Positions 1-61,054 of a stretch of DNA of 64,000 bases are shown here, one piece after another (the stretch's first letter is position 1; every line of letters begins with the position of its first letter). A program made the translations under genes and the position numbers. A model generated the notes under the pieces. It ran no database searches, was not told the DNA's origin, and saw only the letters and a program-made list of their open reading frames with translations. The stretch is from Spirochaetae bacterium HGW-Spirochaetae-5 (GTDB lineage: Bacteria > Spirochaetota > UBA4802 > UBA5550). The stretch spans positions 1,248 to 65,247 of the forward strand of contig PGXT01000004.1 of NCBI GenBank assembly GCA_002839285.1, written 5' to 3'.

Positions 1-2
1 TT

Positions 3-299
3 AATAATCCGGTTTTTAAATTAAGGAGCCGTTCACCGGTTATATTTAGTCACGGCAATCATATGATGATTGAAGATTTATCCTGCCGCGACTGCCACCA
101 CCGGTTTGAAAACGGGATTAATGTTCTCGACGAGGCCGAACTTGACAGCGATAACAAAGATATATACTGCAGAAGCTGTCATACCGGTGAAACAGAGCTG
201 AAGAATGCCTATCACAGATCATGCATAAGATGTCACGACGCCATGATCAAAAAAAACAAGTCCGCAGGTCCGAGACTCTGCGGAGAATGCCACAAATAG
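3..299 (+). CDS. Class III (c3-type) tetraheme cytochrome c, 5'-truncated by window edge
   Basis: Frame is open from base 3 (NNPVFKLRSRSPVIFSHGNHMMIEDLS...), giving the c3-type 'F-S-H-x-x-H' motif plus four CxxCH (CRDCH, CRSCH, CIRCH, CGECH). Confidence 0.85.
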   Translation, partial: NNPVFKLRSRSPVIFSHGNHMMIEDLSCRDCHHRFENGINVLDEAELDSDNKDIYCRSCHTGETELKNAYHRSCIRCHDAMIKKNKSAGPRLCGECHK

Positions 300-318
300 T
301 AAATCTCCGGAGAATATA

Positions 319-996
319 ATGATAAAGGCAAAACGGAAACCTCTTGAAGAGTTATTCGATCTCACTAAAGGCTTTCAGCGTATACTCTGCGTCGGATGCG
401 GCGGCTGTACATCAGTCTGTCTAGCCGGGGGGCAGCGGGAAACTCAGATGCTGAAAACAGATCTGTCTCAGCTATTCAGAGAGAACGGCAAAAGCGCACA
501 TATCTCTGTCTTTGTTATAGAGCGCCAGTGCAGCCCGGAATATATTTCTGATATTGAAGACATGATTAAAGATTATGGCTGTGTAATATCCGCCGCTTGC
601 GGAGCAGGCGTACAGCTTCTTGCAGAGAGGTACAGATCAAAACCGGTTTTCCCTGCGCTGAACACCATGTTTGTCGGGTTAGACAGAAGCACAGGATTAT
701 ATCAGGAGAGATGCCGTACATGCGGCGACTGTCAGCTGGGATACACCGGCGGGATATGCCCGGTAACATGCTGTTCGAAAAGTCTCTTCAATGGCCCATG
801 CGGCGGCACAAACATTAACGGCAGCTGTGAAGTCAGCAGAGAGACACCATGTGCCTGGAATGAGATATACGAAAGATTAAAAATGCAGAATCGTGTCGAG
901 AACATTCTCTCCATACATCCCCCGATGGACTGGACTGACAAGGGTCCGGGGACACTTATTCAAAGCGGATATGAGAGCAGATATATAAAGAAGTAG
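319..996 (+). CDS. metV: MetV-type methylene-THF reductase small subunit (MTHFR C-terminal domain, Cys-rich)
   Basis: Motifs CVGCGGCTSVCLAGG, CGAGVQ, CRTCGDC..GGICPVTCCSKSLFNGPCGG..CEV..CAW; immediately upstream of metF. Confidence 0.85.
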   Translation: MIKAKRKPLEELFDLTKGFQRILCVGCGGCTSVCLAGGQRETQMLKTDLSQLFRENGKSAHISVFVIERQCSPEYISDIEDMIKDYGCVISAACGAGVQLLAERYRSKPVFPALNTMFVGLDRSTGLYQERCRTCGDCQLGYTGGICPVTCCSKSLFNGPCGGTNINGSCEVSRETPCAWNEIYERLKMQNRVENILSIHPPMDWTDKGPGTLIQSGYESRYIKK

Positions 997-1019
997 AATA
1001 TTATGGAGAACAATATATA

Positions 1020-1985
1020 ATGAAATCAGGTAGCAATCTGGAGAGAGTATTAAAGGCCGGACATTTTGCTGTAACAACGGAGTTTGGTCCGCCGAAGGGT
1101 ACCGATCTGTCTATAGTTAAAAATAAAGCTGAATTTATACGGGGCAATGTTGATGCGGTAAACGTTACCGATTGCCAGACCGCAGTTGTACGGCTGTCAA
1201 GTATAGCCACATCGGCAATTCTTGTCCAAATGGGAATTGAGCCTGTAATGCAGATGACTTGCCGTGACAGAAACAGAATAGCAATTCAGAGCGACATATT
1301 CGGCGCATCGGCATTGGGTATTAAAAACATGCTGGCAATTTCAGGAGATCATCACAGTTTCGGGAACCAGAAAAATGCGCGCAAAGTTTACGACATAGAT
1401 TCGATGCAGATGATTTCGCTTGTGAAAAGAATGCGTGATGAACAGAAGATGCTCAGTGAAGATAAACCATTCCAGGGTGAAGTCCCCATGTTCATCGGAG
1501 CGGCTGCGAATCCCTTCGCGCCTCCGGTTGAATTCCGCGCCATGCACCTTAGAAAAAAAATTGAAGCAGGCGCCGACTTTATACAGACTCAAAGCATATA
1601 CGATGTTGATAAATTCCGGCAGTGGATGAAGATAGTCTGCGACATGGGATTGGACAGACAATGCGCAATACTTGCAGGACTGACTCCTCTGAAGTCTGCC
1701 GGTATGGCAAGATATATGGCTGATAATGTACCGGGGATGCAGATACCGGAATCGTTGTTGACCCGAATGGCAGGTGTTCCAAAAGAGAGAGCTGCAGAAG
1801 AGGGGATCAGAATTTTCTGTGAACAGGTTGAACAGATACGGGAAATTCCGGGAATCGCAGGTTTACATATAATGGCAATTGAATGGGAACATAGAATTCC
1901 CGAAATTACTGAACGGGCTGGACTCCTCCCCAGACCGGTTATGCAAGGAAATGACTTTTTCAGTGGGGATCCTCAATGCCGATGA
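1020..1985 (+). CDS. metF: Methylenetetrahydrofolate reductase; C-terminal ~12 aa possibly derived from a fusion
   Basis: TTEFGPPKG, DAVNVTDCQ, MQMTCRDRNRIAIQSD, KKIEAGADFIQTQ motifs. Confidence 0.92.
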   Translation: MKSGSNLERVLKAGHFAVTTEFGPPKGTDLSIVKNKAEFIRGNVDAVNVTDCQTAVVRLSSIATSAILVQMGIEPVMQMTCRDRNRIAIQSDIFGASALGIKNMLAISGDHHSFGNQKNARKVYDIDSMQMISLVKRMRDEQKMLSEDKPFQGEVPMFIGAAANPFAPPVEFRAMHLRKKIEAGADFIQTQSIYDVDKFRQWMKIVCDMGLDRQCAILAGLTPLKSAGMARYMADNVPGMQIPESLLTRMAGVPKERAAEEGIRIFCEQVEQIREIPGIAGLHIMAIEWEHRIPEITERAGLLPRPVMQGNDFFSGDPQCR

Positions 1986-2019
1986 CATCATTGAGGATCT
2001 TCGCCAGGCGATGTCTTAG
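1951..2019 (+). pseudogene. Orphan C-terminal remnant of a Cys/Met-metabolism PLP enzyme
   Basis: Alternative frame reads MTFSVGILNADDIIEDLRQAMS*, aligning by eye with the C-terminus of MetY in this window ([20 protein letters not shown]). Confidence 0.6.
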
Positions 2020-2085
2020 ACTGAAGTTCTGAAATTATTTGTTCAGTAGGATCGATTTATTCCGGCATAGAGTATTGATTTAAAT

Positions 2086-2446
2086 CTACTCTGCGCCGGT
2101 TTTGTCCCCGTTCTCTATCTTTATTTCACATTTGTCGCACCAGCGGCTCTCAACATAATTAAGCACTGCAGCTGTCAGTAGTGCAATTACACCTGCATAA
2201 AGGAATAATTTATTATAGCTGATAAAAATTCCATAAAAGACACTTAGTGTGCCTGAAACCCCGATAAGCAGCGGCAAAGAACATAAAGATATAAACGATT
2301 GTCTTCTCCTCAAACGGAAAGAGTATGCCTACTCCTAAAATGCTGCCTAGAACAGAAAAAAGAGGGAAACAGACCGGGCAGGCCATTGCAGAAAGCAGAG
2401 CACCAAAGCTTCCGGCCTTATCAAGAAATCTTAAATTAATATCCAT
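2086..2446 (-). pseudogene. merC: MerC-family membrane transporter, split by frameshift and internal deletion
   Basis: N-half LDKAGSFGALLSAMACPVCFP (MerC-like Cys pair) in ORF 2213..2446; C-half PLLIGVSG..LFLYAGV..RWCDKCE in ORF 2086..2313; frames switch near 2280. Confidence 0.7.
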
Positions 2447-2609
2447 AAACTCCCCTTCTGGAAGAGAACTATATTAAACCAATTCCAACCATCTTTTAAT
2501 AAAATTTATTATCTGTTTAAAACTAATTCCATTAATCTCTCTAATATACTTTTGTATATATTCCCGGGATATAGTTACCCAATTTGTTTAAATGATGTTT
2601 ACAGCAATT

Positions 2610-53467: not shown

Positions 53468-55864
53468 CTATTCAGTAGTCAGACTCTTCGCCAGCTTCAC
53501 TGCTTCCATGGCATCAATCGAGTAACCGTCAGCTCCGATCTCGTCGGCGTAATTCTGGTCAACTACCGCTCCGCCGATCATAAACTTCAGTTTAAGTCCT
53601 CTGCTTTGTGCAAGATTTATCACATTCGGCATTTCGGTCATCGTTGTGGTCATCAGCGCCGAGAGCGCAATAATATCGGCTTTCACTTCAACCGCTTTAT
53701 CGACTATCGTCTCTGCCGGAACATCCTTCCCAAGATCGATTACTTCAAATCCGTAATTACGGAGCATCAGCGTTACTATATTTTTTCCGATATCGTGAAT
53801 ATCACCTTTGACAGTTGCTATTACTACCCTTCCCGCTTCTTTATCTCCGGCCTTTTTTACAAGGAGAGGTTCAAGTACTGCAAAACCTTTCCTCATTGTA
53901 TCGGCACTCATTATAAGCTGCGGAAGAAAATACTCCTTCTTCTCGTACTTGTCTCCTACAAGAGTAATTGCCGGAATAAGAAAATCATCAACAAGCTTTT
54001 TCGCCTCTATCCCTGAATCGAGGGCTTTCTGAACTGCAGATTCAATACGATCGTCCCAGCCGCGGAGTACAGATTCATAAACCATCTTTTCGGGCGAAAG
54101 ATCGGCATTTGCTGCGGCAATCTTTTCACTGCTGCCGGAGAATCTCTCCACATAGCCTGTAAGATTTTTATCTCTCCCTGAAAGCGCGTCACATGAAAAT
54201 ACCGTATTCATGAGAAGCTCCGAAGCAGGGTTGGCAATAGCCATTGTAAGCCCCCGCGACGCCGCCATTGCAAGGAACGATGAGTTGATCCAGTCCCTTG
54301 ACGGAAGCCCGAAGGAGACATTGGAAAGTCCGCAGATTGTATTTATACCTATCTCGCGTGAACACCACTCGATAAGGTCCAGTGTCATAAGCGCGGCGTT
54401 TTTATCGGAACTCACAGTCATTACAAGTCCGTCAACTACCACATCCTCTTTTTTATATCCGTACTTCGCACCTTCGCTTAGTATAAACTCAACTATTTCT
54501 TTTCTCTCCTCAAGAGTCTGAGGAATTCCCTCATCATTCAGAGGGAGAAGTATAAACATCGCACCGTATCTGGCAGCTATCGGCAGGGTCTTCTCAATCC
54601 GCTCTCTCTCCGCGGAGATGGAGTTAACCAGAGCACGTCCCGGATATATGCGGAGTGCCGCCTCTACAACTTCAGGGATTGTCGAATCTATACATAATGG
54701 AAGATCGCTTGTTCTCGAAAGGAGCCGGACTGCTTTAAGCATCATCTCCTTTTCATCTATTCCCGAAAGCCCCATATTTACATCAAGAATTGCGGCTCCC
54801 TTAAGCTGCTGCTCCAGCGCAAAGTCCTGAACAATACCGGTTTTACCCTCGCGAAGTTCCGCCTGAAGAGCTTTCTTGCCCGTGGGATTAATTCTCTCTC
54901 CAACCACAGCAAAGGGTCTGCCGTTACCCATAAACACGCTCTTCCGTGCAGATGAAACCGCCGAAGTGAATTCAGAGGAATGAGTAAGAGTTTTGTGCCC
55001 GCGGGCCTTGACTGCAGCAGCTCCTATATGTTCAGGTGTTGTACCGCAGCACCCTCCAAGCAGATTGGCGCCTGCCGCAATAAAGGCTTCAACATATGAG
55101 GCAAATTCTTCGGGTCCCATATCAAACGAGGTGACACCGTTAATCAGCCTTGGAACACCGGCATTAGGCTTGGCAAGAAGCGGTACCCTGGCAAACTCTC
55201 TCATTGTGCTAATGACTTTCATCATGTCCGCGGGACCGGTTGAGCAGTTGCACCCCACAGCATCGGCTCCAAGAGACTGAAGCGTAATCAGCGCAGAAAC
55301 AGGGTCAGTACCGTTAAGCGTACGTCCGTCCTTTTCATATGTCATACTCACCATTACAGGAAGATCGCAGATTTCGCTGATGGCAATCAGTGCGGCTCTG
55401 GCCTCCTGAATATCGAGCATTGTTTCTATAACAAAACCATCCACACCGCCGTCAAGAAGCCCCTTCGCCTGATCCTTATAAATCACAACAGCATCCTCAA
55501 AGGAGAGATCCCCGAAAGGTTCAACAAATCTCCCCGTAGGGGCTATGTCTCCGAATACAAGAGCACTCCCGGCATTCATCTTTGACATCTGCGCCAGTGA
55601 AAAATTTATCTCGTAAACCCTCTCTTCAAGACCGAACTCCTCTAACTTGCATCCATTAGCACCGAAAGTCGGAGTATAAATAATATTACTCCCGGCGGAG
55701 ATATATTTATCCTGAAGATCTTTCACCGCAGCGGGATTTTCCATACACCACAGCTCGGGGCATACACCGGATGGCATCCCCCGTTTTACAAGCTCTGTAC
55801 CTGTGGCTCCATCGAGTATTACAAGTCCGCTGCTTAAAAAGTCTCTGAATTCTTTTTTATTCAT
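53468..55864 (-). CDS. metH: Cobalamin-dependent methionine synthase (Hcy-, pterin- and B12-binding domains; no activation domain)
   Basis: LDGATGT, GCNCSTGP, GGCCGTTPEH, VVGERINPTG, GLSNVSFG, VKGDIHDIGKN. Confidence 0.93.
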   Translation of the reverse strand: MNKKEFRDFLSSGLVILDGATGTELVKRGMPSGVCPELWCMENPAAVKDLQDKYISAGSNIIYTPTFGANGCKLEEFGLEERVYEINFSLAQMSKMNAGSALVFGDIAPTGRFVEPFGDLSFEDAVVIYKDQAKGLLDGGVDGFVIETMLDIQEARAALIAISEICDLPVMVSMTYEKDGRTLNGTDPVSALITLQSLGADAVGCNCSTGPADMMKVISTMREFARVPLLAKPNAGVPRLINGVTSFDMGPEEFASYVEAFIAAGANLLGGCCGTTPEHIGAAAVKARGHKTLTHSSEFTSAVSSARKSVFMGNGRPFAVVGERINPTGKKALQAELREGKTGIVQDFALEQQLKGAAILDVNMGLSGIDEKEMMLKAVRLLSRTSDLPLCIDSTIPEVVEAALRIYPGRALVNSISAERERIEKTLPIAARYGAMFILLPLNDEGIPQTLEERKEIVEFILSEGAKYGYKKEDVVVDGLVMTVSSDKNAALMTLDLIEWCSREIGINTICGLSNVSFGLPSRDWINSSFLAMAASRGLTMAIANPASELLMNTVFSCDALSGRDKNLTGYVERFSGSSEKIAAANADLSPEKMVYESVLRGWDDRIESAVQKALDSGIEAKKLVDDFLIPAITLVGDKYEKKEYFLPQLIMSADTMRKGFAVLEPLLVKKAGDKEAGRVVIATVKGDIHDIGKNIVTLMLRNYGFEVIDLGKDVPAETIVDKAVEVKADIIALSALMTTTMTEMPNVINLAQSRGLKLKFMIGGAVVDQNYADEIGADGYSIDAMEAVKLAKSLTTE

Positions 55865-58521: not shown

Positions 58522-59076
58522 GTGAGACGTTCATTGCTGCTTTTCTTTACCCCTTTTATTATTTTTACATGGATTTTCTTCGGAATATCCCAAAAGGGCT
58601 GTGACAGCGTAATGCAGGCTGATGCTGCAAAAAAAATCCCCTTTAACCACCAGAGTCACGTGGAAAAATACGGGATAAGCGACTGTACAACATGCCATGG
58701 ATATGAAGAAAACGGAAGATTTAAGGGACTTCCAACCATAGCCGAATGTACGACATGTCACGCCAGAGATGGTGTTTTGACTTCCGATGATCAAAGCATT
58801 CCGAGAAAAAAACCAATGTTTGATTCATACAAGGATACAGACCAGCCCTGGGAATCATTCGCAAAACAGCCCGATCTTGTTTATTTCAGTCATAGCGTTG
58901 TAATGACAGCGAAGTACGATGACGGCAGATTAAAAGCACGCTGCGGATCCTGTCACGGCGACAAGGCAGACTCAACAGGCACCAAAATGATCAAAGGCAA
59001 AATGCTCATGGGTCAGTGTATGGATTGTCATACCGCGCTTAATTTGAGCAACAAATGTGCCGTATGTCACGACTAG
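58522..59076 (+). CDS. qrcA: QrcA-like membrane-anchored pentaheme cytochrome c
   Basis: N-terminal TM helix, PFNHQSH, five CxxCH, KQPDLVYFSH. Confidence 0.82.
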   Translation: MRRSLLLFFTPFIIFTWIFFGISQKGCDSVMQADAAKKIPFNHQSHVEKYGISDCTTCHGYEENGRFKGLPTIAECTTCHARDGVLTSDDQSIPRKKPMFDSYKDTDQPWESFAKQPDLVYFSHSVVMTAKYDDGRLKARCGSCHGDKADSTGTKMIKGKMLMGQCMDCHTALNLSNKCAVCHD

Positions 59077-59106
59077 AAAGAAACTTGAGAGGAGTAAGTT
59101 AATCTT

Positions 59107-61044
59107 ATGAAAAAAATAGAACGAAAGGACTTCTTAAAATTAGGAGGGGGCGCAGTTCTTGGCGGTCTTTCCGGTTGGGTTTTTTCCGGTGCTCCTTTTC
59201 TGGGTTTTCAGTGGCTTGCGGAATGGACACAGGACCAGTATGTACCGGTTAAAGGTTTCGAAAAATATGCACAGGCTGTGAGCGATTCATGTCCTGCGGG
59301 ATGTAAAGTTTCCGTAAGAATGATTGGCGATAGAGCTGTAAAAATTGAATCAAAAGATGGAGTATGCCCTGCATGTCATAACGCTCTGCAGCTGACCTAC
59401 CATCCTGAAAGAATATCCACACCTCTTAAACGAAAAGGTGATAAGGGAGACGGAAAATTTGTACCTGTAACATGGGAGGAAGCGGTCAAAGAGATCTCTT
59501 CAAAAATGAATTCTCTTATTACAGAAGGAAAAGCAAATTCTATTGCAGCGATAAACAAAAATGAATCACTAAACGGTCAGTTAATGGAAAAATTCATTAA
59601 AGCTGCCGGAAGCAATAATGTTTATTACGAACCATCATTAAAATCTCTGACTTCATCAGCTCTCGGCGGATACATAAACTACGATTTCGCAAACACAGAT
59701 TATGTACTTAGCTTCGGAGCAAAACTTGTTGAAGGATGGGACTCATCAGCTGATATGCAGAAAGTTTTTACCCAGTGGAAAACAAAAGGGACTAAAATAG
59801 TTCAAGCCGACACTGTATGCTCGATGACAGCCTCTCTCGCTTCAGAGTGGGTTCCTGTTAAACCGGGCACAGAGGCAGTTCTTGCATTCGGTATAGCAAA
59901 CTACCTGATAACCGGCAGAAGACTGAACTCAACAGGCGAGGAGTTTGGAAAATGGTCCCAGCTGATCATCAACAAATTCCCTCTTGCAAAAGTGGCATCC
60001 TATACAGGTGTAAGCGAAGAGAGAATTAAAAAAATAGGTGATGATTTCAGTAAAGCCAAAAATCCCGTTGCAGTTTCAGGTAAAGGCGCTTGTGGAGTAA
60101 ATGCATCATCTGCTGAAATCATAGCTGTTTACTGCCTCAATACTCTTGTTAAATCAAAGGCTGCCACTCTTATGACAAACAGCTCTGTAACATACAAGGG
60201 TGAATTTGCGGGACTCGACAGTTTCATAAAAGACGGGAAATTCAGCATGCTCTTCCTTAATAATTCCGATCCGGTTTACAAAAGCGTACTTGGTGAAGAT
60301 CTGAAAAAGAAAATGGAAAAAGCATTTGTTGTTTCCATAAATCCTATTATGAACGATTCAGCAAATTATGCCGACATCATTCTTCCGTCTCTTTCATTTC
60401 TTGAAAGCGAAACTCCGGAGAATAAAGCTGTTGTCAGCAATTTTAAAGAGTCAAAAGACGCGAAAGATATAATTATAGCTCTATCAAAATCTTTAGATAA
60501 AACAAAGGACACATTCTCTTTCGCCAGCGGAATAGATTCATTCAAAGTTGCCGGAAAAGAAACAGCATCAGGAGCAAAATTCTCATTTAATGTTGATAAG
60601 ATAAAAAATGATATTGATGCACTTGATAAAAAATTTGCAGCAAACGCGGAATATCCTCTATTCATGATACCTGTTGAAGCTCCTCTTGTCGGCGATGGTG
60701 ATGGACTTGCTTTCCCGTATGTACTGAAAAGCATTGATCCTACTGTATTTTACAAAGGAAAACTCCTTGTTCAGATTAACAGGGAAACCGGAAAGAAATA
60801 CGGTCTGTCCGAAAATGAATCAATAGTGATTCGCTCAGCAAGAGGAAAGCTGGACAAAGTTTATGTACATTTAACAGATACTGTTGCACCTGACACAGTT
60901 GCCATGCCGCTCGGTTTCGGTCACGAATCGTACACTAAGTACGGTAGCGACAAAGGGGTTAATCCTAAAAAGATTATGGCTGCTGATGTTGATCCTCTTA
61001 CAGGAACAGCTGACTGGTGGTCAACACGTGTCAAAATTAGTTAA
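59107..61044 (+). CDS. qrcB: QrcB-like molybdopterin-oxidoreductase-family subunit with Tat-type signal
   Basis: ERKDFLK signal, CPAGC, YHPERISTPLKR, VTWEEA, IKPGTE-like VKPGTE, C-terminal MPLGFGH..GVNP. Confidence 0.8.
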   Translation: MKKIERKDFLKLGGGAVLGGLSGWVFSGAPFLGFQWLAEWTQDQYVPVKGFEKYAQAVSDSCPAGCKVSVRMIGDRAVKIESKDGVCPACHNALQLTYHPERISTPLKRKGDKGDGKFVPVTWEEAVKEISSKMNSLITEGKANSIAAINKNESLNGQLMEKFIKAAGSNNVYYEPSLKSLTSSALGGYINYDFANTDYVLSFGAKLVEGWDSSADMQKVFTQWKTKGTKIVQADTVCSMTASLASEWVPVKPGTEAVLAFGIANYLITGRRLNSTGEEFGKWSQLIINKFPLAKVASYTGVSEERIKKIGDDFSKAKNPVAVSGKGACGVNASSAEIIAVYCLNTLVKSKAATLMTNSSVTYKGEFAGLDSFIKDGKFSMLFLNNSDPVYKSVLGEDLKKKMEKAFVVSINPIMNDSANYADIILPSLSFLESETPENKAVVSNFKESKDAKDIIIALSKSLDKTKDTFSFASGIDSFKVAGKETASGAKFSFNVDKIKNDIDALDKKFAANAEYPLFMIPVEAPLVGDGDGLAFPYVLKSIDPTVFYKGKLLVQINRETGKKYGLSENESIVIRSARGKLDKVYVHLTDTVAPDTVAMPLGFGHESYTKYGSDKGVNPKKIMAADVDPLTGTADWWSTRVKIS

Positions 61045-61054
61045 GAGGTAAGTC

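Follow-up and report, generated by a model that had tools for sequence, protein, structure and literature searches.

A Tmc-like membrane module encoded together with a MetVF-type methylenetetrahydrofolate reductase in a spirochaete genome

Introduction

For decades it has been debated how the reduction of methylenetetrahydrofolate (methylene-THF) or the oxidation of methyl-THF is tied to the membrane and to the conservation of energy. According to a 2021 review, membrane localisation of methylene-THF reductase (MTHFR) had no support from genome sequences (PMC8578096), and the one experimental membrane chain is that of Sporomusa ovata, the anchor of which was not identified (PMC9430772). The question is raised again by the first genes of a 64,000-nucleotide stretch of the genome of Spirochaetae bacterium HGW-Spirochaetae-5 (the window; positions 1248–65247 of contig C240), where a cytochrome c3 gene is closely followed by metV and metF, the genes for the two subunits of a MetVF-type MTHFR. 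Analysis of this locus suggests that the three genes belong to an operon for what is likely one membrane-bound redox complex, a Tmc-type transmembrane conduit ending in MetVF, and that the operon encodes a putative membrane anchor for MTHFR directly.

Organization of the operon

The window opens inside a gene and begins with open reading frames (ORFs) at 3–299 (5'-open), 319–996 and 1020–1985, all on the plus strand. The original prediction had read these as a tetraheme c3 gene, metV and metF, co-oriented with gaps of 19 and 23 bp, and both the ORF coordinates and the Pfam matches agree with this. A further 1247 contig bases precede the window, and the reverse complement of contig C87, which shares a 99-nt overlap with C240, was used to read past the start of C240. 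The genes lie in the following order:

L001:2–703, upstream of the window: tmcC-like gene for a membrane cytochrome b; 233 amino acids, multi-pass membrane protein
L001:768–1169, upstream of the window: short iron-sulfur (FeS) gene; 133 amino acids, Cys-rich
C240:1166–1546 (= L001:1166–1546), plus strand, the 3' part being window 1–299: tetraheme cytochrome c3 gene (TmcA-like); 126 amino acids, PF02085
Window 319–996, plus strand: metV, Cys-rich small subunit of MetVF-type MTHFR; 225 amino acids, PF12225
Window 1020–1985, plus strand: metF, catalytic flavoprotein subunit of MTHFR; 321 amino acids, PF02219

The true start of the c3 gene is 82 nt before the window edge, and its start codon overlaps the stop codon of the FeS gene (ATGA). 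Upstream of the tmcC-like start, a spacer of approximately 180 nt is followed, across the overlap of C87 and C240, by a divergent gene of 167 amino acids, which is 95% identical to the gene at the same position in a closed genome of the same genus (G006). At the other end, the genes 3' of metF are all on the minus strand, which places the end of the operon at metF. Bounded in this way at both ends, the operon consists of exactly five genes. No TmcD gene and no Hdr or MvhD gene was found within it (the TmcD family was not sought genome-wide). Known MetVF subtypes have rnfC2 or hdrCBA-mvhD as accessory genes or stand alone; the operon has neither set and is not a stand-alone metVF. A promoter and terminator scan of window 1–2600 gave fewer sites than shuffled sequence, none of them informative.

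Subunits encoded by the operon

The MetV protein matches PF12225 with 118 bits and MetF matches PF02219 with 153 bits, both far above the cut-offs, and by these family assignments the pair qualifies as a MetVF-type MTHFR. Thirteen Cys residues of MetV are invariant in 15 orthologues, and 12 are still invariant in 45. The MetF orthologues of 14 relatives (53–95% identical) come after metV in 14/14 loci, and with 308–315 amino acids they align to residues 1–309 only. The last 12 residues of MetF (window 1947–1985) form a tail that is absent from the relatives and unique to this genome.

The best NCBIfam match of the membrane protein is TmcC (NF045723; 157 bits, model positions 2–213 of 218, below the 240 cut-off), followed by HmcE (144 bits, below the equivalog cut-off), while the NarI-type family PF02665 is matched with 23.4 bits, barely above its cut-off of 22.9. 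In a profile search of solved structures, NarI was the sole relative found. Approximately five hydrophobic segments are present, with invariant H95, H108, H179, H191 and H209 within or beside them, and this arrangement would correspond to the NarI/DsrM type, in which helices 2 and 5 of five transmembrane helices bear conserved His pairs. The subunit is probably a five-helix diheme cytochrome b of the NarI/TmcC/HmcE type.

The 133-amino-acid FeS protein has HmcF as its best NCBIfam match, though only over model positions 33–152 of 457, and matches the TmcB model only over positions 27–137 of 430, both below cut-off. In Pfam, Fer4_8 (33 bits) and Fer4_17 (30 bits) both passed their cut-offs, and no CCG domain (PF02754) was matched. 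In TmcB, HmcF, DsrK and HdrD, the disulfide-reducing site is formed by the CCG domains. The short length is kept in orthologues, and a full-length relative (P0018) does carry a CCG domain. All 15 orthologues share nine Cys residues, those of the motifs CxxCxxCxxxC and CxxCxxCxCP and one more; in 45, eight are still invariant and the remaining one is conserved in at least 90%. The AlphaFold model is all-helical (pLDDT 88.8), and its best solved folds are HdrC (5odc, prob 1.0) and then the C-terminal domains of SdhB/FrdB, these matches being weak (E 0.05–1, TM ~0.5) but consistently ranked. The C-terminal domain of SdhB/FrdB is the domain seated on the heme-b membrane anchor. The profile search of solved structures found none for the FeS protein and none for MetV. 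Motifs and model assign the FeS protein to the helical two-cluster ferredoxins, as a counterpart of the TmcB/HmcF N-terminal domain.

When 1.84 billion representative proteins were surveyed, the FeS-protein family proved small: E ≤ 1e-30 was reached by 14 clusters and E ≤ 1e-10 by 148. Among the strong matches was a natural fusion of a TmcC-like protein with the FeS protein (P0004, 375 amino acids), encoded at L124:93–1220 on a contig of 1832 bp (GCA_024449465.1) with a MetV fragment on one side and c3, which overlaps the end of the fusion gene, on the other. Such a fusion gives direct evidence for the membrane and FeS subunits working as one. Two further proteins, P0006 and P0021, also look like fused forms.

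Cytochrome c3 matches PF02085 with 46.9 bits and, as its best NCBIfam, TmcA (NF045722; 79.9 bits, below the 114 cut-off). The tetraheme character that had been predicted from the truncated ORF is confirmed in the full 126-amino-acid gene, which has four CxxCH motifs at residues 56, 84, 102 and 121; these and four further His residues are invariant in 15 orthologues. The N-terminus is a hydrophobic, signal-like stretch.

Conservation of the linkage

A set of 41 genomes of relatives was searched with the FeS protein, and a short FeS orthologue was found in 15 of them, this genome counted. All five genes were present in the same order in 14/14 of the other relatives' loci, across which the identity of TmcC and c3 drops to 30–35%. 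In a scan of species-representative genomes, the FeS protein had at least 535 relatives, and the best 80 of these form the basis of the locus figures. By record title, these 80 loci come from Spirochaetota, many Desulfobacterales, Desulfohalobiaceae and metagenome-assembled genomes labelled Myxococcota and Acidobacteriota; cultured carriers are Desulfoluna limicola, D. butyratoxydans, D. spongiiphila and Desulfocicer vacuolatum DSM 3385, and also Desulfotignum. A near-complete MetV lies at most 4.5 kb from the FeS gene in 72 of the 80 loci, which were seeded on the FeS gene only. The synteny of c3, metV and metF, on which the original prediction had been staked, is kept in all 14 relatives; across phyla, the five genes mostly stay together in the 80 loci though their order is shuffled, and the linkage is far beyond chance.

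At least nine gene orders in which the FeS–TmcC pair accompanies MetV were seen, among them c3-V-C-B'-F, F-C-B'-c3-V and C-B'-V-F-c3 (C, tmcC-like; B', short FeS gene; V, metV; F, metF). Retention of the linkage while gene order changed repeatedly points to a functional unit more than to an operon order that was simply inherited. In the public records, proteins of the module are named 'respiratory nitrate reductase subunit gamma', '(Fe-S)-binding protein', 'zinc-finger protein' or 'hypothetical'. A search of sequencing runs gave no RNA runs with a match, and the DNA matches were groundwater and sediment metagenomes.

The predicted complex

From gene content, domains and conserved ligands, it is likely that the five genes encode a single membrane-bound redox complex in which a Tmc-type transmembrane conduit ends in MetVF. 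The membrane part would be the five-helix, probably diheme cytochrome b, with the helical ferredoxin on its cytoplasmic face and tetraheme c3 connecting its outer face to the periplasmic cytochrome pool. MetV (Fe-S) and MetF (flavin) would replace the CCG domains and the disulfide substrate as the cytoplasmic redox site. Being periplasmic, c3 cannot touch MetVF directly, and the link would have to run through the cytochrome b and the FeS protein. We infer a path from the c3 pool and/or menaquinone to hemes b, the FeS protein, MetV, MetF and finally methylene-/methyl-THF, which could run in either direction. A heme-based conduit from MetVF to a respiratory chain had been proposed in the original prediction, with membrane and Fe-S partners and a signal peptide to be looked for upstream; the predicted TmcC/HmcE-like cytochrome b, the ferredoxin resembling the TmcB N-terminal domain and the signal-like N-terminus of c3 support this on comparative-genomic grounds.

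A number of observations weigh against such a complex. Every Tmc and Qrc equivalog cut-off was missed. Contact between the FeS protein and MetV is suggested by gene linkage only, and no fusion of the FeS protein to MetV was seen among its longer relatives at E ≤ 1e-10, which is weak evidence. The composition of the cluster is not fixed, with approximately one quarter of the 80 loci having no MetF within 4.5 kb and 15 having no c3, several of these being full-length loci with no ORF containing even two CxxCH motifs. In the assembly itself, no AcsB or CooS and no MttB-family methyltransferase was found, leaving no high-flux source or sink of methyl-THF identified, and a second, canonical MetF (327 bits) is also present in the genome. 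A complex prediction for MetV and the short FeS protein (alignments of 45 rows each) scored 0.25 against a mark of 0.32, without controls, and speaks neither for nor against binding. Because c3 and MetF are missing from some loci, the constant core consists of the cytochrome b, the FeS protein and MetV, and c3 is a frequent but dispensable component of the module.

Comparison with known systems

The operon resembles TmcABCD of Desulfovibrio vulgaris and HmcABCDEF in its predicted periplasmic tetraheme c3 (TmcA-like), its TmcC/HmcE-like cytochrome b and its homologue of the TmcB/HmcF ferredoxin domain. It differs from TmcABCD in its FeS subunit, which has 133 instead of approximately 430 amino acids and is without CCG domains, in having no TmcD in the operon, and in its partner, which would be MetVF and not a DsrC-reducing site, in a genome without a dsrA match above cut-off. 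The operon is thus predicted to work like a Tmc complex but, lacking CCG domains and TmcD, is not a member of the TmcABCD family.

With the HdrCBA-MvhD-MetVF enzymes of Moorella thermoacetica and S. ovata the operon shares a core of MetV and MetF with an accessory electron-input module. However, the module of those enzymes is soluble (HdrABC/MvhD, flavin-based), whereas here a membrane cytochrome b and a periplasmic c3 are predicted. To our knowledge, no dedicated membrane anchor is known for HdrCBA-MvhD-MetVF. The S. ovata enzyme is associated with the membrane, and membranes of this organism reduce methylene-THF with H2 as the donor (PMC9430772). In Acetobacterium woodii (MetVF-RnfC2) and Clostridium ljungdahlii (plain MetVF), the enzymes belong to the same families (PF12225, PF02219) but are soluble, receive electrons from NADH via RnfC2 or from reduced ferredoxin or dyes in vitro, and are not known to have heme subunits. 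A helical two-cluster ferredoxin domain on a diheme membrane protein is also known from complex II (SdhB/FrdB on SdhC/FrdC) and, by homology, from HdrDE and DsrMK; where these have a flavoprotein dehydrogenase or a disulfide reductase with CCG domains as catalytic partner, the partner here would be a folate reductase.

MetV is present in 30 of the 41 genomes of relatives, and extra copies preceded by MvhD (FlpD) and HdrA-like genes were found at L134 (G004), L136 (G007), L126 (G017), L127 (G039) and L131 (G028). MvhD-MetV(-MetF) loci of the Moorella/Sporomusa type therefore coexist with the Tmc type in the same spirochaete order, while this genome and the closed G006 have the Tmc-linked copy only. 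With MvhD/HdrA-like genes preceding its other copies in the order, MetV seems to be a modular adaptor that takes different electron modules, the Tmc-like module among them. The extra copies at L126 and L131 are followed by a MetF-sized ORF of 308 amino acids, and at L134 no MetF-sized ORF comes after MetV. In G022, a canonical MetF (L035:10976–11842; PF02219, 315 bits) lies on the opposite strand immediately 3' of the Tmc-linked metF.

No description of a link between Tmc and MetVF was found in a full-text literature search, though an earlier mention in key reviews may exist; for D. autotrophicum, a figure legend is the only place in the genome paper that lists 'MetF-ABC' and a second 'TmcBCA'. 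This is apparently an undescribed and widely conserved way of wiring MTHFR to the membrane. New here are the presence of the module in a genome and genus without acetyl-CoA synthase (ACS) and in a genome without dsrA, the naturally fused protein, the occurrence of MvhD-linked MetV alongside the module and the precise extent of the operon. With cultured, tractable sulfate reducers among the carriers (Desulfoluna, Desulfocicer, Desulfotignum), the hypothesis is directly testable.

C1 metabolism and electron carriers of the genome

The assembly is 95% complete and contains Fhs and one GcvT. A MetH-like gene is located at window 53468–55864. Sulfate reduction was rejected for this genome, as no dsrA match above cut-off was detected in the assembly, and MttB-type methylamine/betaine methyltransferases were rejected as a methyl source, none being present. 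A protein of 389 amino acids encoded on contig C98 (L121:7754–8923), approximately 3 kb from the canonical metF, contains part of a CdhD/AcsD-like domain (49 bits). On contig C266 (L123:292–2465), genes for a corrinoid protein and a URO-D-family methyltransferase fused to DUF1638 are followed by two PAS/HisKA_2 histidine kinase genes; this corrinoid protein was the only other B12-domain protein found by tblastn in the genome.

The original prediction had also pointed to a check for Wood-Ljungdahl genes, and here the outcome was divided: this genome has neither AcsB nor CooS, and no full AcsB was found in seven other genomes of the genus, one of them closed, but AcsB is present in four of the 15 cluster-bearing genomes and lies near the cluster in two of these. 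In G033, cooS-acsB-acsC-acsE-DUF3786-cooC is directly upstream of the cluster, and in G021 the cluster and acs genes are on one contig. The other 11 cluster-bearing genomes, from six genera, are without AcsB, and ten AcsB-bearing relatives are without the cluster; these counts are descriptive only, the genomes being kin. Because 11 of the 15 have no AcsB, the module extends beyond the Wood-Ljungdahl pathway, and a strict tie to the acetyl-CoA pathway was rejected on the same count.

An operon on the minus strand of contig C262 (L120:388–3962) encodes a c3 of 128 amino acids, a HycI-type maturation protease and the small and large subunits of a [NiFe] hydrogenase, and is likely a periplasmic source or sink for the c3 pool. 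Within the window, a Qrc-like ABCD set (58522–63162) comprises a multiheme c, a molybdopterin-like, an FeS and an NrfD-like membrane subunit, for which the best families QrcA–D scored 89, 296, 272 and 305 bits against cut-offs of 180, 440, 400 and 570. The original prediction had suggested that the conduit might act together with this Qrc complex. The set does co-occur with the operon, which is compatible with such a link, but the co-occurrence is not specific: QrcD is present in 12/15 cluster-bearing and 17/26 cluster-lacking relatives (29/41 overall), and the distribution of the hydrogenase among relatives is similarly general. A specific partnership was rejected on these counts, and Qrc is a possible downstream partner through the c3 pool. 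In the spirochaete order, QrcD orthologues are usually found alongside a periplasmic-type [NiFe] hydrogenase. Together, the Qrc-like set and the hydrogenase would make up a periplasmic electron network in the style of sulfate reducers, in a dsrA-less genome with no terminal reductase identified.

Alternative explanations and physiological role

The original prediction had itself allowed that c3 might be the last gene of an unrelated upstream operon, adjoining metVF by accident. The chance of this is now negligible, as the FeS gene and c3 overlap by their stop and start codons inside the five-gene operon, and c3 sits between the FeS gene and metV in 14/14 relatives and within the module in approximately 65 of the 80 other loci. 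It is also unlikely that the genes are co-regulated without electron coupling, with the mini-Tmc module serving another cytoplasmic acceptor and MetVF using ferredoxin or a soluble carrier as in C. ljungdahlii. This would fit the varying composition of the cluster, in which MetF is not always included, and purified MetVF enzymes have been described as soluble and working with artificial dyes or reduced ferredoxin (PMC8760232; PMC8578096); however, the FeS protein, being without CCG domains, would have no catalytic site of its own, its pairing with MetV outlasts many independent gene-order rearrangements in several phyla, and no other conserved gene accompanies the module.

A solely anabolic role, in which an H2- or c3-driven MTHFR supplies methyl-THF for methionine synthesis by MetH, is regarded as quite improbable. 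It would suit a genome without AcsB/CooS in a genus without full AcsB, one that has a MetH-like gene in the same window and a periplasmic-type hydrogenase with c3. Yet the canonical MetF is already available for methionine synthesis, a five-subunit membrane complex would be costly for a small biosynthetic flux, and the position of the cluster near acs genes in G033 and G021 points to catabolic or autotrophic C1 flux.

If the genes do encode a Tmc-type conduit ending in MetVF, the complex would be the Wood-Ljungdahl MTHFR in relatives with ACS. For the ACS-less, dsrA-less spirochaete the two directions are nearly balanced, with a slight lean towards methyl-THF oxidation feeding membrane or periplasmic carriers. 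Oxidation of methyl-THF (~-200 mV) needs an acceptor more positive than NAD+, and a heme/quinone module provides one; the lean follows from the inability of methyl-THF to reduce NAD+, and it is only slight because, without ACS, neither a large methyl source nor a large sink is evident. The alternative direction would be H2/c3-driven reduction of methylene-THF, as in S. ovata membranes.

It is conceivable, though doubtful, that the complex is a free-standing methyl-THF:menaquinone/cytochrome c oxidoreductase, or its reverse, which conserves energy without the acetyl-CoA pathway or sulfate reduction. In such an enzyme, methylene-THF could be the terminal acceptor for periplasmic H2 oxidation, or methyl groups could be oxidised and the electrons exported to quinone or c3. 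If this were true, it would give MTHFR the membrane coupling site that has long been sought for it, as a fifth type of wiring.

Genes upstream of the operon

The divergent 167-amino-acid gene (L119:282–785 on contig C87) is without a Pfam match and contains the histidine-kinase-like ATPase N-box ELLENAIKYG. It is followed by genes for proteins of 465 and 447 amino acids, the first of which has no Pfam match in the relative. Possibly, this region represents an anti-sigma or partner-switching module beside the promoter region of the operon.

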